The notes below the pieces were generated by a model. That model did not search any database, was not told the origin of the DNA, and was given only the letters and a program-made list of their open reading frames with translations. The translations under genes were made by a program, and so were the position numbers. Below, piece after piece: positions 12,145 through 39,722 of a DNA stretch of 64,000 nucleotides; the first letter of the stretch is position 1; every line of letters begins with the position of its first letter. The stretch covers positions 480,001 through 544,000 of the forward strand of contig CAWJAX010000005.1 of assembly GCA_963841015.1 (NCBI GenBank). The letters are read 5' to 3'. The stretch comes from an uncultured Methanoregulaceae archaeon (GTDB lineage Archaea; Halobacteriota; Methanomicrobia; Methanomicrobiales; Methanospirillaceae).

Positions 12145-12218
12145 TGGGCCCGATGTGATTCGAACACATGACCTCCCGGTTATCAGCCGGGCGCACCACC
12201 GGGCTATGCTACGGGCCC
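12145..12218 (-). tRNA. tRNA-Ile(GAT)
   Basis: Cloverleaf GGGCCCG...CGGGCCCA, anticodon loop CT-GAT-AA, TTCGAA T-loop. Confidence 0.96.
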
Positions 12219-15458: not shown

Positions 15459-15542
15459 CGCTGAGGGGGGGAATTGAACCCCCGAGGCACTTTCGCACCA
15501 CAGGCTTTCCAGGCCTGCGCCCTACCGCTAGACTACCTCAGC
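15459..15542 (-). tRNA. tRNA-Ser(GGA)
   Basis: GCTGAGG acceptor stem, CAGGC-CT-GGA-AA-GCCTG anticodon arm, long variable arm. Confidence 0.95.
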
Positions 15543-20866: not shown

Positions 20867-20939
20867 TAGCCCGGAGCAGATTCGAACTGCTGTCGGGGGA
20901 TCCAGAGTCCCCCATGATTGACCGCTACACTACCGGGCT
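20867..20939 (-). tRNA. tRNA-Gln(CTG)
   Basis: AGCCCGG acceptor stem, GGGGA-CT-CTG-GA-TCCCC anticodon arm. Confidence 0.95.
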
Positions 20940-28667: not shown

Positions 28668-28739
28668 CGGACCCAGCGGGAATCGAACCCGCGTCCTTGG
28701 GTTCGAAGCCCAAGAGGATGTCCTCTACCCCATGGATCC
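28668..28739 (-). tRNA. tRNA-Arg(TCG)
   Basis: GGATCCA acceptor stem, TTGGG-CT-TCG-AA-CCCAA anticodon arm. Confidence 0.95.
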
Positions 28740-34633: not shown

Positions 34634-35563
34634 ATGTTTTCGGTCCGGGAAGTGGTCACCAGCAGAGGCACGCTACAGTATCGCGAAGAACATCTCACGG
34701 GCATCCGGTGCAGGATCAGTCCTGACCGGTTAAAAAGGCAGATCGATCGGACTGCATACATTCCTTCAAATGCTGAGGGTTGCCCGTTCTGCCGCGATGC
34801 TGTTTTTTCTGTTACACCCACATTTCCCGATGGCAGACGGATCATCCGAGGGGAGAGTGTTACCTTCCCGAACCTGTTTCCCTTCGGGGAAGGGCACGTA
34901 GTCACCGTAATCACCCGTGAGCACTCGGTCACTGCGTTCAGCAGGCAACAGATAACAGATGCACTCCTCGCGCAAACCGAAGCCCTCCGGCAGGCCGATG
35001 GCTATGCCAGCATCAACTGGAACTTCCTTCCATCGGCAGGTGCAAGTCTTGTCCACCCTCATATGCAGGGTTTGTCAGATTCATGCCCATCCCGTATTGT
35101 CGACTCTTATATTACCGCAAGCGAACAGTTCCGCAGGATACAGGGCAGGAACTACTGGGATGTAGTAAGGGAGGAGGAAAAATCCTCAGATCGATACCTG
35201 TTCGGTGATGAAATACTCTGGTCAGCCCATGCGGTGCCGGTTGGTGAGCGTGAAGTGAGAGGTATACTGCCAATCTCCACACTTGAAGAAATGGAAAACT
35301 ACGTGGATCTCGTGGCGCAGGGCATACTTGAGATCATCTCATTATACCGGCAACTGGGAACCCATGCGTTCAATATGTCCATTTTTTTTGATAAGAATGG
35401 CAACGATCACGGATTACGGGCGTTTTGCTCTATGATCTCACGAATCAACCCCAACCCTTCATCCACAAGCGATTCTGCATTCATGGAGCGGCTCCACCTC
35501 GAACCGGTAATAATGACGCTTCCAGAAGACCTGGGAAAATTTTACAAAAAAGAGAAAAAGTAA
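34634..35563 (+). CDS. Galactose-1-phosphate uridylyltransferase-like (HIT superfamily) protein
   Basis: CPFC, FPNLFPF, AGASLVHPHMQ. Confidence 0.82.
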   Translation: MFSVREVVTSRGTLQYREEHLTGIRCRISPDRLKRQIDRTAYIPSNAEGCPFCRDAVFSVTPTFPDGRRIIRGESVTFPNLFPFGEGHVVTVITREHSVTAFSRQQITDALLAQTEALRQADGYASINWNFLPSAGASLVHPHMQGLSDSCPSRIVDSYITASEQFRRIQGRNYWDVVREEEKSSDRYLFGDEILWSAHAVPVGEREVRGILPISTLEEMENYVDLVAQGILEIISLYRQLGTHAFNMSIFFDKNGNDHGLRAFCSMISRINPNPSSTSDSAFMERLHLEPVIMTLPEDLGKFYKKEKK

Positions 35564-35567
35564 AAAT

Positions 35568-36407
35568 TTACTCGAATTTTGCTACGAGTTTGTTCTTGGA
35601 AACGAGCACGCCGTCTTTCTTGTGGGGCTTTCTGAGAACGGAGTCGTTTGCCTTTTCTATTTCGCGGGCTTCATCACAGAGAATTGCTGCAACTTTCAGC
35701 ATTTCGTGAGCGCTTGCAACGATCGGGATATATTTCTCCCATTCCTTGGTCATGAAGCAGCCCTTGACATTCTGTCCTGCAACAGCCATTGCGATCTCGT
35801 GGGCTGCGCGTGCCTTCGCCAGTGCATAGTTGTTGGTGAACTCACCCTCAACAGCCTTGTCAGTGGTCATGACGATCTTCGGGAGGACAAGTTCTGCGCC
35901 CTTCTTTCCTGCCTTCACCTGGTCGATGACCAAGTCAACAGCGAGCTGGAGTTTGCGGAATGCACCGGTAATTGCCAGAACTTTGACAAGGTTGCCGTTG
36001 AAGTCGGCCATCTCTACGGGGTCAAGGAACTCGCGGCGTGCACCGATCATGGAGTCTGCCTTCATGATGATGTAGCCGAAATTGCTGGCCTTGACTCCTT
36101 CCCATTCCTTCTTCGTGGTCACATCATCGGTTATGATGATGACCGGGATTCCTGCCTTGGCGAGTTCTTCACGGGCACCGGTGGGTCCCGGGAGAACACC
36201 ATTCGGGGAAACCACAATGCAGAAATCTGGTTTCCATGCCTTCATGTTCGTTACGACACGGTCAATGTCTTCCGGCTGGAGTTTCGTCCCGCTGGTCGCC
36301 ATGAATGTCTGCATGTCTTCACGGTCTGCCCTCTCATCGAGAAGCAGCTCAGCCATTACACCACTTGCAATATTGCCGAGTTTGGCAACTCCTACTTTAA
36401 CAACCAT
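35568..36407 (-). CDS. mtd: F420-dependent methylene-H4MPT dehydrogenase
   Basis: [42 protein letters not shown]. Confidence 0.96.
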
Positions 36408-36611
36408 CTATATCACCTAATTTTTTTTTATAACACGTTATTATGACCCGGTATTCATATAAACATTTTGAAATGTCCTCTCTCGCCGAAAAATTGTGAA
36501 AAACCAAGGGTATTGTTGAATGATGATGTTTTAATGAGGGCACTTCAAGAGTAAATTGTATTTGGGCATAGTTAACGAAAAGTGTTTAAGTTTGTATAAA
36601 GTATTAATAGT

Positions 36612-37016
36612 ATGAAAGATGGTCTGCTCACTGAACGCCAGATGGAGGTTCTCAGGTACCGTAAACAAGGGCTGACCCAGCAGCAGATTGCTGATATTAT
36701 CTCTACTTCAAAAGCAAATGTCTGCACGATTGAAAAGAGTGCTATGGAGAATATCAGAAGGGCAAAAGAAACACTTGAATTTCTATATACACTGGATGCA
36801 ACACATCTGTGCACTATCCCTTCAGGGACGGATCTCTTTGATGTTCCCTCCATTATCTTTGGTGAAGCAGAAAAAATTAACATAAAAGTGATGTATGATA
36901 CAATTTCCCTCATAAACCGGCTGAGAGAAACCCGTCCCCAGTGTTGTAAAGCCCGTTGTTTATGTGAAGATATTATTGTGTATGTCACTGATCTCGGTGA
37001 ATTGTATTTTGGATGA
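36612..37016 (+). CDS. tfx: Tfx family DNA-binding protein
   Basis: LTERQMEVL...GLTQQQIA...TSKANVCTIEKSAMENIRRAKETL. Confidence 0.85.
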   Translation: MKDGLLTERQMEVLRYRKQGLTQQQIADIISTSKANVCTIEKSAMENIRRAKETLEFLYTLDATHLCTIPSGTDLFDVPSIIFGEAEKINIKVMYDTISLINRLRETRPQCCKARCLCEDIIVYVTDLGELYFG

Positions 37017-37206
37017 AACCGAAATGAAAATCAAAGGATAATAATAAAAAAGCATATTTTTCCTGGAGAATCCGTAGCACGTTGTATCCGGCCATGGGCA
37101 TATGTTTATATTCTTTTTTATGCAATGATTAAGGAAGCCGATATGAGGTTATCCTCTGATGTATCCATGTGCTGATTCGATGAAAAGCACATTTTTGATA
37201 TTATCA

Positions 37207-37684
37207 TACGGCGGGACCAGACTTCCGGACACAGGAAAGTCGGTTGTGCCGTGGGTATTCCTCGATTGGTGAACTCCGCACCATAGCGGAGGAAACCCGA
37301 GAAGGAGTTGTGACTCGTCACAACAGGCTGACTAAGTGGGATCTGACCAGCACGCATGGGTCGACGTTTGAACAAACGAGCCCGTTCCACCTGCTCTCTC
37401 ATTGAGCAGATGGATGCGTTATTGTCAGGATCTTCTTTCGCGAGACAGGAAAGCTGGTGTATCAGCTCGTGGATGAGAAAAATATCATCCCAATGTCCGT
37501 AGGCCACATGAAAAAACCGGACGTTCATTAATACCCGAAAAATCCCGCAAATGCGGGTTAGCGTATTACCTGAGTTGTCCGGATTTCTCAACTGGCTTCG
37601 CGTGTTGGCATCTAAACCAGACAACGTTATCACACGGTCTCGGATTAATCAAAAATTCGTGTCGCAAAGGGAATAACCTACACG
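37207..37684 (+). ncRNA. Candidate large structured RNA / 5' leader of the ribosomal protein superoperon
   Basis: No + strand ORF of 60 aa or more; more than 10 consecutive helices including a nested multi-way junction; TATA-like TTTATA near 37106. Confidence 0.55.
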
Positions 37685-37706
37685 CAGAAAAAGGATTGAT
37701 TAACAT

Positions 37707-38720
37707 ATGCCAAAAATAAACAGACCACGCCGTGGTTCTCTTGCATTCAGCCCAAGAAAGCGTGCAAAGAGCCCGATCCCGAAATACCAATCGTGGCCTC
37801 TCTATGACGGGGCACCGGTACTGCAGGGGTTTGCCGGTTATAAAGTAGGTATGACACACGTTATCATGGTAGATGATCACAAGAACAGTCCTACAGAGGG
37901 GAAGGAAATTATGGTGCCGGTCACCGTTATTGAAATTCCCTCTATGAAGGTCGCTGCGATTCGTGCCTACTCTGAAGATACCTATGGCAAACATGCGCTG
38001 ACAGAAATCTGGGCAGACCAGCTCGATACTGTGCTTGGTCGCCGTATCACCCTGCCGAAGGACTATGACAAAAAGGCTGCTGAGAAGAAATTTTCGGATG
38101 CAGTTGAAGCTGGTACGGTTGCTGAGATCTATGCAGTCTCCTACACACAACCGGCAATTTTATCAGGTGTCCCCAAGAAAGTCCCCGATCTTATGGAGAT
38201 TAAGGTGGGAGGCGGAGACATCAAAAAGCAGTGGGAGTTTGCCCAGGGTATTTTGGGAAAAGAGGTTTTTCTGAACAATGTCCTCCAGTCCGGTGCATAC
38301 GCCGATATTACTGCGATCACCACCGGAAAAGGTACGAATGGTGCAGTAAAACGGTGGGGTATAGCGCTGCGCAAGCGTAAACACTCCGTCGGCGGAAAGG
38401 AGCGCCACCTGGGGACACTCGGACCCTGGAATCCCCATCATGTAAGATGGCAGGTACCCCAGATGGGCCAGCTGGGATTCCAGCAGCGGACAGAGTTTAA
38501 CAAACGTATTTTAAGGATAAGTGAAGACGCGAGCGAGATCACCCCAGCCGGGGGGTTCCTGCACTATGGTGTACTCAGGAGCCCGTATGTCCTGGTCAAG
38601 GGATCCATTCCTGGCCCGGTCAAGCGGCTTATACGTATCCGTCCGGCGATGCGCCTTGGTGAACATGTAGTCAGGATGCCGACAATCCAGTTTGTGAGCG
38701 TCCAGAGCAAACAGGGATGA
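37707..38720 (+). CDS. rpl3: 50S ribosomal protein L3
   Basis: [31 protein letters not shown]. Confidence 0.97.
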
Positions 38721-38726
38721 TCAGAG

Positions 38727-39473
38727 ATGAAAGCACAGGTTAAATCACTTGATGGCGGAATCGCGAAAGATATTGAACTTCCGGAACTCTTTTCCGAGGA
38801 GTACCGCCCCGATCTGATCAAAAAGGCAGTCATGGCCCTTCAGAGCACCCGGCGACAACCCCATGGGACGAATCCGTATGCCGGAATATGTTCTTCAGCA
38901 GTCGGCTGGGGAAGTGGCCGCGGGTCATCGCATGTACCCCGTATCAAGAACGGTTCACGCGCTGCAAAAGTTCCGCAGGCAAAAGGAGGCCGTGAAGCAC
39001 ATCCTCCGAAGGTTGCCAAAATCCTGATCAAAGAGATCAACCAGAAGGAAAAACAAAAGGCATTCCGTTCAGCGGTAGCTGCTAGTATATCTGCGGACCT
39101 CATCCGCGGTCGCGGTCACCGGTTCGAGGGGGCTGTTCCCGTTATCCTTGAGGATAAGTTTGAGTCACTCGACCGTACGCAGGATGTCATATCAGCGCTT
39201 ACTACTGCAGGTGTCTATCATGATATCGAACGGGCAAAGGAGAGCAAGAAAGTCCGTGCAGGAAGAGGCAAAATGCGCGGTCGCAGGTTCAAACAGAGAA
39301 AAAGCCTGCTCATTGTCACCGCAGGAAAACCACTACGGGCAGCACGTAACCTTTCCGGTGTCGATGTTGTAACCGTAGACCAGCTGAATGTCGAGCACCT
39401 TGCACCGGGTATGCTGGCTGGACGTCTCACGGTCTGGACTGAGAGCGCCCTTGTGCGCCTGGAGGGGAGATAA
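38727..39473 (+). CDS. rpl4: 50S ribosomal protein L4
   Basis: RPDLIKKAV, WGSGRG, AGRGKMRGRR, LAPG. Confidence 0.97.
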   Translation: MKAQVKSLDGGIAKDIELPELFSEEYRPDLIKKAVMALQSTRRQPHGTNPYAGICSSAVGWGSGRGSSHVPRIKNGSRAAKVPQAKGGREAHPPKVAKILIKEINQKEKQKAFRSAVAASISADLIRGRGHRFEGAVPVILEDKFESLDRTQDVISALTTAGVYHDIERAKESKKVRAGRGKMRGRRFKQRKSLLIVTAGKPLRAARNLSGVDVVTVDQLNVEHLAPGMLAGRLTVWTESALVRLEGR

Positions 39474-39722
39474 ATGGTTCTGAAATACCCGTTTGTAACA
39501 GAAAAAGCAATGGTCCTTTTAGAGAACCAGGCAAAACTCCAGTTCCTCGTCAGCCGTGAAGCCTCCAAAAGCCAAATCAAACGTGAAATCGAAAAAGCGT
39601 TTGGACAGAACGTCAAAAACGTTCGCACGCTCATGACCATGCACGGTCAGAAGAAGGCAATTGTGAGTTTTGAGAACGAAAAGGCCGCCGAGGAAATTCT
39701 CAGCCGGCTTGGTATTATGTAG
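39474..39722 (+). CDS. rpl23: 50S ribosomal protein L23
   Basis: PFVTEKAM, KKAIV. Confidence 0.96.
   Translation: MVLKYPFVTEKAMVLLENQAKLQFLVSREASKSQIKREIEKAFGQNVKNVRTLMTMHGQKKAIVSFENEKAAEEILSRLGIM

Follow-up and report, generated by a model that had tools for sequence, protein, structure and literature searches.

The window analysed here is a 64,000-nt stretch of contig CAWJAX010000005.1 from an uncultured Methanoregulaceae archaeon, and its subject is the 690-nt spacer (37017-37706) between a tfx-like regulator gene and the ribosomal protein gene rpl3. This spacer carries a conserved structured non-coding leader, with a core belonging to the Rfam family RF03135, which descends from the mRNA of a PF02598 gene and is maintained by purifying selection as RNA. 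We are highly confident of the identity and origin of the leader. Positions 37133-37706 would represent a non-coding 5′ leader of about 575 nt for rpl3-rpl4-rpl23, transcribed from a TATA box at 37105-37112 and presumably acting in cis on the rpl3 operon. Taken as a whole, an RNA leader of the rpl3 operon which arose from a decayed PF02598 gene and acts in cis is the explanation that we favour and regard as rather probable. The first-pass annotation, made from the letters of the window, had already proposed that the ribosomal superoperon opens with a large structured leader, and conservation, covariation and RNA contigs joined to rpl3 all agree with it. It had also taken the leader for undescribed and for the best candidate for a new system in the window. 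This does not hold, because 86 nt of it represent a known Rfam family and its length was inherited from the former open reading frame (ORF).

The cmscan search of the whole window returned a single match within the leader region, to RF03135 (L4-Archaeoglobi), with 60.6 bits against a gathering score of 34.5 (E = 7e-10) and covering model positions 1-85 of 85. The match coincides with the nested junction holding two hairpins that had been drawn in the first-pass annotation, and its location also fits the family, as rpl3, rpl4 and rpl23 follow downstream at 37707-39722. The core and its flanking elements are:

37343-37428, + strand: RF03135 three-way junction found by cmscan, with an outer helix that extends to 37334-37347 paired with 37424-37437
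37274-37292, + strand: hairpin CTCCGC/GCGGAGG (helix 6 of the consensus fold described below), 4 of 6 pairs changed on both sides
37307-37324, + strand: hairpin GTTGTGA-CTCG-TCACAAC (helix 9), invariant in the genus
37424-37447, + strand: near-invariant block GTCAGGATCTTCTTTCGCGAGACA, 17 of 24 positions identical in 21/21 genus members
37453-37466, + strand: hairpin GCTGGT/ATCAGC (helix 17), 3 of 6 pairs changed on both sides

RF03135 originates from Eckert and Weinberg 2020 (PMC7247131) and is listed, in the part of that work available to us, upstream of rplC-rplD-rplW-rplB. The rows of its Stockholm alignment are mainly from hypersaline metagenomes and haloarchaea, and one row from a RefSeq chromosome resembles, by eye, the form of the window's order. 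With the core already in Rfam and such a row in its alignment, the leader is not a new kind of system. The window shares with the family the three-way junction with its CUGA/UCAG outer helix and the site upstream of rplC-rplD-rplW. However, the family is defined as an 85-position motif, whereas here the motif forms the centre of a conserved multi-domain leader of about 575 nt. In the literature consulted we found no description of the extent of the leader, of the embedding of the motif in coding sequence or of a frame lost more than once while the RNA was kept; the supplement of PMC7247131, which lay outside this coverage, may mention the overlap.

Other RNA families were considered for the leader and rejected. 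C/D-box sRNA and further Rfam families gave just 14-20 bits at a permissive threshold, against cut-offs of 33-110. Neither RNase P RNA (RF00373) nor signal recognition particle (SRP) RNA (RF01857) matches the leader, as the first-pass annotation had noticed from the lack of their complete signatures, and both RNAs are encoded elsewhere: RNase P RNA on contig C3 of the genome (212.9 bits) and the archaeal SRP RNA at 541-851 of the window (+ strand, RF01857, 182.4 bits).

The + strand of 37106-37706 folds at -208.1 kcal/mol, compared with -163.9 +/- 6.4 for 20 shuffled sequences (z = -6.91), and the - strand folds at z = -5.30. A DNA search of 41 relatives recovered the region in 22 of the 24 other genomes of the genus, and the leader is common, from the TATA box to the ATG, to all 21 aligned members of the genus. 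The alignment of these 21 members from the putative transcript start to the rpl3 ATG (A2, 628 columns) yielded a consensus fold of 130 pairs, in which 93.1 % of the cells are paired, as against 37-42 % when the partners are slid by 1-3 columns. Changes on both sides were counted in 37 pairs (19-24 for slid partners) and 147 cells (36-45 for slid partners), and 0 of 500 column shuffles reached any of the five measures. The slid partners are the fairer control, since the fold itself came from this alignment, whose sequences are related. Across the order (33 sequences), 38 pairs were 91.6 % paired, with 17 double changes versus 5-11 for slid partners. Both the dense structure that had been read from the single sequence and the covariation in relatives by which it was to be judged are present.

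Compensatory changes keep the helices of the RF03135 junction (helices 11-15 of the genus fold), and in the order-wide set 9 of the 26 pairs in helices 2-6 of the order-wide fold changed on both sides. The 5′ domain, formed by helices 2-5 of the consensus fold, has 36 pairs of which 15 changed on both sides. We consider the 5′ domain with its hairpins, the hairpin 37274-37292, the extended RF03135 junction and the hairpins 37453-37466 and 37544-37557 well supported. Concerning the individual helices proposed in the first-pass annotation, comparative folding recovered CGGCGG/GCCG with its inner stem, CTCCGC/GCGGAG, GTTGTGA/TCACAAC, the GATCTGAC/GTCAGGATC junction with two hairpins, GCTGGT/ATCAGC, CCCGC/GCGGG and the CGTGT/ACACG stem at 37658-84. 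Absent from the consensus fold are the outer CTCG/CGAG (both strands have other partners), GGATGA/TCATCC, AATGTCCG/CGGACGTT and the first CGTGT/ACACG stem.

To compare the leader with neutrally evolving sites, we used the four-fold sites in the first 240 codons of rpl3. The mean identity over 153 genus pairs is 0.44 at these sites, 0.65 in leader columns and 0.79 in the core (37297-37465). Since both the leader and its core exceed the four-fold sites, the leader is not drifting. Judged by identity, the promoter, the 5′ end, the core and the region preceding the start codon are conserved well above the neutral level.

The origin of the leader became apparent from its distribution. Among 151 genomes sampled across the phylum, RF03135 matches 97 (87 above the cut-off) and PF02598 is present in 87; outside the window's order, both features occur in 84 genomes, RF03135 alone in 2 and PF02598 alone in 3. 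The DNA around the RF03135 matches in this sample is plainly coding. In 29/29 fetched loci from other lineages, the motif lies inside an open frame encoding a full-length PF02598 (Methyltrn_RNA_3) protein (143-222 bits), which ends at or just ahead of rpl3, in contrast to the placement upstream of L4 operons in the available part of PMC7247131. According to the part of Grosjean et al. 2008 (PMC2584109) at our disposal, COG2106 (HVO_2565, structure 1K3R) is a predicted 23S m3U methyltransferase whose gene is found in ribosomal-protein operons. Haloferax volcanii, used as a control, gave matches to RF03135 as well as PF02598.

In the window's own genome (94 % complete), no match to PF02598 was found in six frames with stops read through (27-bit HMM threshold). 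Within a sample of 121 genomes of the order, PF02598 was detected in 5, belonging to three genera, and RF03135 in 64. All five PF02598-positive genomes are also RF03135-positive, which leaves 59 of the 64 genomes with RF03135 and no detectable PF02598. The 57 genomes scored as RF03135-negative are at least partly false negatives of fast filters, and in 5/5 of those examined (five genera) the same leader could be read by eye upstream of rpl3. Intact PF02598 in the order is limited to genera g7, g70 and g78, within two families that also hold non-coding forms, and this placement points to several independent losses or to allele exchange.

Remnants of the frame are still detectable in the leader by tblastn with PF02598 proteins from ten loci:

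37283-37333, + strand: PF02598 remnant in frame 1
37336-37389, + strand: PF02598 remnant in frame 0, with an in-frame TGA
37418-37446, + strand: PF02598 remnant in frame 1

Credible pieces are confined to these three segments of 37283-37446. The best piece had E values between 1.6e-6 and 0.008 for 9 of the 10 queries. The segment 37336-37389 was matched by 9/10 queries, 37283-37333 by 6/10 (alone no better than E 0.02) and 37418-37446 by 3/10 (alone no better than E 0.9), and no such piece was found in these segments for L031, L035 or L047. A programmed frameshift was considered for the remnant and ruled out by an indel at alignment column 224, which alters the frame relation between species of the genus. 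Compared with an intact PF02598/COG2106 SPOUT methyltransferase gene, the leader occupies the same slot directly upstream of rpl3, has the same promoter-proximal 5′ element within the order and retains protein similarity at 37283-37446, but it has neither an ORF nor an HMM match, and its 5′ element lies 574 nt from the rpl3 ATG, versus about 890 nt in the intact locus L024. A decayed protein gene was the outcome that the first-pass annotation had set against its own proposal, and in part this is what we see: the region descends from PF02598 with a broken frame, yet it is under purifying selection as RNA.

A second loss was observed in genus g30 of another order, where PF02598 is present in 3/8 genomes and RF03135 in 5/8. 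Two loci of this genus (L076 and L077, from genomes G079 and G149, neither with a PF02598 match) have a full-length but multiply broken PF02598 copy upstream of rpl3 with the junction sequence intact in both; they seem to record the conversion of a gene into a leader at a less advanced stage. Their 5′ parts have in common a highly conserved stretch with GGCTGATCACCTCGT, which resembles the 3′ end of 16S rRNA. In family f14 (L053, L058 and L060), the last 100-190 nt between the PF02598 stop and rpl3 form a conserved spacer, ACAGCGTAAGTATC...GATACCTGGCGATTGACAAAGCCAGAGCC, which may be a separate leader element of that lineage.

The RNA elements can be followed into the coding DNA of intact PF02598 genes. 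The three intact genes of the order (L024, L063 and L065) carry the hairpin GTTGTGC-N4-(G/T)C(A/G)CAAC, the counterpart of 37307-37324 with a C-G top pair or a wobble pair, and share the GGATCTGAC...GTCAGGATCT helix and the CTGGTGCAC(G/A)CCAG hairpin. The block GTCAGGATCTTCTTTCGCGAGACA also lies inside the intact ORFs of the order, and the hairpin 37453-37466 corresponds to CTGGTGCACGCCAG in the L024 ORF. In 30 PF02598 ORFs, codon identity given the same residue was 0.685 in motif columns versus 0.496 elsewhere (the pairs are not independent), and its local maxima of 0.66-0.71 coincide exactly with the two flanks that form helices. Of the loci with high GC content at third codon positions (GC3), 16/16 use AGG for the arginine in the 3′ strand of the outer helix, and AGG makes up just 1-3 of 28-49 arginine codons in these frames. 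In the 5′ strand the residue varies between Ser, Pro and Thr, and the paired letters CU-GA are constant. As far as codon comparison can tell, the RF03135 motif suppresses synonymous change inside intact genes.

One variation of the core was seen in L071 (genome G025, genus g2), where the block TTCGCGAGA, invariant at 37437-37445 in the genus of the window, is present at about 370-440 of the spacer in four or five tandem varied copies (CTTCGCGAA, TCTTCGCGAAA, CTTCGCGAC, CCCGCGAAA and TCTTCGCGAGAC). Because TCGCGA is self-complementary, the copies could be a repeated protein site or mutually pairing strands.

The 5′ end of the leader comprises three elements:

37097-37112, + strand: conserved promoter block containing the TATA-like TTTATATT at 37105-37112
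37133-37148, + strand: 5′ element GGAAGCCGATATGAGG, 14 of 16 positions identical in 21/21 genus members
37137-37270, + strand: 5′ domain, a long-range helix of 37137-37154 with 37253-37270 enclosing the hairpins 37157-37206 and 37209-37251

In the alignment of 21 genomes from the tfx stop to the rpl3 ATG, the sequence upstream of 37097 is unalignable and then becomes near-invariant from GGCATA-TTTATAT on. This abrupt start of conservation places the promoter at 37097-37112, in agreement with the TATA-like box that had been noticed near 37106. The box precedes the 5′ element by 27-28 nt in 10/10 examined spacers of the order, and from this spacing the transcript would begin at about 37131-37134. 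Two loci with an intact PF02598 ORF (L024 and L064) are preceded by the same TATA-like box and 5′ element, GGAAGCCGCTATGGGG, as the non-coding forms. Single-sequence folds of other genera close an equivalent 5′ domain with different sequences. Such folds, together with duplex predictions, put the partner of the 5′ element just upstream of the core in coding as well as non-coding loci, at a distance of about 290-335 nt in the former and 75-145 nt in the latter; this predicted placement is no more than suggestive. We also considered GGAAGCCGA as a match to the N-terminal REAED codons of haloarchaeal PF02598 genes, and rejected it as in intact loci of the order the element belongs to the 5′ untranslated region.

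The 3′ half of the leader is more variable and contains:

37544-37557, + strand: hairpin CCCGC/GCGGG (helix 18), 5/5 pairs changed on both sides, in the variable 3′ half
37598-37609 and 37638-37650, + strand: conserved 3′ blocks TCGCGTGTTGGC and TCTCGGATTAATC, respectively, with largely invariant columns
37658-37684, + strand: hairpin CGTGT/ACACG (helix 20), invariant in 21/21, just upstream of the ribosome-binding region
37691-37709, + strand: Shine-Dalgarno-like block AGGATTGATTAAC and the rpl3 ATG (37707), near-invariant in the genus

Candidate partners of the conserved 3′ blocks (37598-37650) are 37297-37333, 37439-37443 and 37694-37700 (helices 7, 8, 10, 16 and 19). The 3′ end of 16S rRNA reads GGATCACCTCCT, and GGATTGAT or GGGTTGAT is present in 5 of 9 other spacers of the order (L067, L068, L070, L072 and L074), so the block at 37691-37709 could serve as a Shine-Dalgarno sequence. 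The equivalent of the hairpin 37544-37557 is followed by 5-7 T in 4 of the 21 genus members (G002, G021, G011 and G004; A2 columns 447-480), which is terminator-like, and the window has just TT at this place.

To see the leader in RNA, we placed Logan contigs from four metatranscriptome runs (three studies) on 36500-38800. Contigs from three runs (two studies) join the 3′ half of the leader to rpl3 (37406-37758, 37367-37870 and 37470-37786), and others span 37156-37447. They come from environmental relatives with 90-100 % likeness and inform on the presence of the joined form in RNA libraries, not on starts, ends or levels. Differences in depth and the missing cover over 36962-37115 were not used as evidence, as depth sums relatives.

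The history and function of the leader may be pictured as follows. The operon formerly began with a gene for the PF02598/COG2106 SPOUT RNA methyltransferase, and most of the phylum still has an intact copy ahead of rpl3. In the window this frame has decayed, with selection keeping the RNA architecture of that mRNA: the 5′ domain with the transcript's first nucleotides in its closing helix, a hairpin, the RF03135 junction with its extended outer helix and a further hairpin, followed on the 3′ side by the conserved blocks and the hairpin directly ahead of the ribosome-binding region. A ribosomal protein encoded by the operon would bind the junction, possibly L4, which Eckert and Weinberg proposed by analogy only. 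Binding would favour long-range pairing of 37644-37650 onto the Shine-Dalgarno-like 37694-37700 and lower the translation of rpl3. Feedback by a ribosomal protein is our leading idea for the function of the leader, and we put it forward tentatively, with somewhat more doubt than belief. The leader of the Escherichia coli S10 operon, about 170 nt long and with a defined terminator hairpin, is bound by L4 and works by transcription attenuation and translational repression. Both leaders are structured and head an operon with L3, L4, L23 and, presumably here too, L2, and the bacterial one gives a precedent for feedback by L4. However, they have no relation in sequence or in Rfam, and its terminator hairpin is absent from the window.

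Several points weigh against this explanation. Counts of changed pairs were made on the same alignments that yielded the structure and on related sequences, and the MAFFT alignments are rough in their variable parts. The RNA libraries were read as contigs and could include DNA. RF03135 received the rating '?' from its authors, and in the available part of PMC7247131 the choice of L4 as its ligand goes back solely to the regulation of the bacterial S10 operon by L4. A distance of 278 nt separates the junction from the rpl3 start, and the predicted pairing between the core flanks and 37598-37643, like that between 37644-37650 and 37694-37700, is a hypothesis, as the columns involved are almost invariant. 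Finally, comparison of the leader by blastn-short with the 23S rRNA of the same genome, the internal transcribed spacer (ITS) and the 3′ part of 16S rRNA gave 8-13-nt chance matches, the best with E 1.9. Mimicry of rRNA at the level of primary sequence was rejected on these matches, all with E 1.9 or worse.

The lack of rRNA mimicry in primary sequence would sit well with a structural or processing role without protein feedback, in which the paired 5′ end and compact domains shield the long ribosomal-protein mRNA from 5′-end-dependent decay or guide a cut in its maturation. In coding and non-coding forms alike, a conserved closing helix takes up the transcript's first nucleotides, and PMC5496347, in the part consulted, lists the DUF171 gene found in this position among those with abundant expression in a haloarchaeon. 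We nevertheless consider such a role unlikely, as it does not account for a three-way junction with invariant loop and joining nucleotides kept throughout the phylum and within coding sequence. It could also be argued that the core (about 37297-37466) becomes a stable non-coding RNA in its own right, released to act in trans or as part of a ribonucleoprotein, with the operon promoter merely driving it. The core is indeed the best conserved part (0.79 identity), has defined flanking hairpins and outlasts the loss of the ORF in two different orders. However, contigs extend past the core into rpl3, and conservation also includes the blocks downstream of the core as far as the start codon, whose predicted partners are the flanks of the core. 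We regard a released RNA as quite improbable.

A transcription attenuator, with a hairpin and U tract stopping transcription ahead of rpl3 under the control of a ribosomal protein as in the E. coli S10 leader, would have its natural candidate in the hairpin 37544-37557, given its five doubly changed pairs and the T runs in four members. Since 17/21 members including the window lack a run of 5 T there and RNA contigs cross the site, we regard an attenuator as very improbable. Least credible of all is a functionless pseudogene in which the similarity reflects slow decay of the lost PF02598 gene. The frame shifts and in-frame stop at 37283-37446, the lack of a PF02598 match in the genome and the less shrunken decayed copy in another order would all be expected from it, but the data contradict it: the four-fold sites of rpl3 are near saturation (0.44) when the core is still at 0.79, whole blocks are invariant in 21/21 members and helices are maintained through compensatory changes. 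Moreover, the flanks of the former ORF are gone and the RNA elements persist, with RF03135 in the absence of PF02598 in 59/121 genomes and the leader in 5/5 'negatives'.

The genes next to the leader are:

36612-37016, + strand: tfx-like regulator gene, upstream neighbour of the leader (PF14601 TFX_C, 108.2 bits)
37707-38720, + strand: rpl3 (PF00297, 286 bits)
38727-39473, + strand: rpl4 (PF00573, 125.9 bits)
39474-39722, + strand: rpl23 (PF00276, 52.9 bits)

The order of tfx, spacer and rpl3 is maintained in the genus and the order. Within the spacer, ORFs on the + strand reach only 37-53 aa and the - strand holds one of 171 aa; neither this one nor the 53-aa + strand ORF matched any Pfam family. 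Open-frame lengths vary freely on both strands among the 21 genus members, the - strand frame measuring 174 aa here and 90 aa in the closest relative. The 171-aa ORF was rejected as a gene on its unconserved length and lack of Pfam families, and a conserved small ORF from the 5′ ATG (37144) was rejected as nothing beyond the first four codons is conserved in alignment A2 and one member has no ATG. The earlier reading of the spacer as free of + strand ORFs can be extended to both strands, neither of which has a conserved ORF in 37017-37706. Further upstream, 35568-36407 (- strand) encodes F420-dependent methylene-tetrahydromethanopterin dehydrogenase (PF01993, 353 bits), and a convergent 309-aa ORF at 34634-35563 (+ strand) has no Pfam match at E 0.001. 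Rfam also identified four tRNA genes in the window, all on the - strand (12145-12218, 15459-15542, 20867-20939 and 28668-28739).

Autoregulation of ribosomal proteins in archaea is almost unexplored, and RF03135 was a candidate that its authors rated as uncertain. That RF03135 is a functional RNA now has independent evidence, as it survives the decay of the frame with compensatory changes and, inside intact genes, limits synonymous change and imposes a rare codon. The view of the family is corrected as well: in most lineages RF03135 is embedded in coding sequence and is not a conventional intergenic leader. The conversion of a gene into a leader is documented here at the start of an operon that ranks among the most highly expressed, and most of the order appears to lack the predicted 23S m3U methyltransferase, which would imply that the modification was lost. 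It is possible, and in our judgement nearly balanced between yes and no with a slight tilt to the latter, that the first 'gene' of the superoperon in the phylum is primarily an RNA device, with RF03135 and its flanking helices as an ancient regulatory structure written through the PF02598 coding sequence. The protein layer would then be dispensable and shed at least twice (in the order of the window and in a genus of another order), and the RNA layer would be indispensable, living on as a long leader. If this is true, the non-coding forms serve as a natural experiment by which RF03135 is shown to be a real RNA and no artefact of coding sequence. Being free of coding constraints, they suit binding and reporter tests and would offer a clean system in which to search for the ligand of RF03135.

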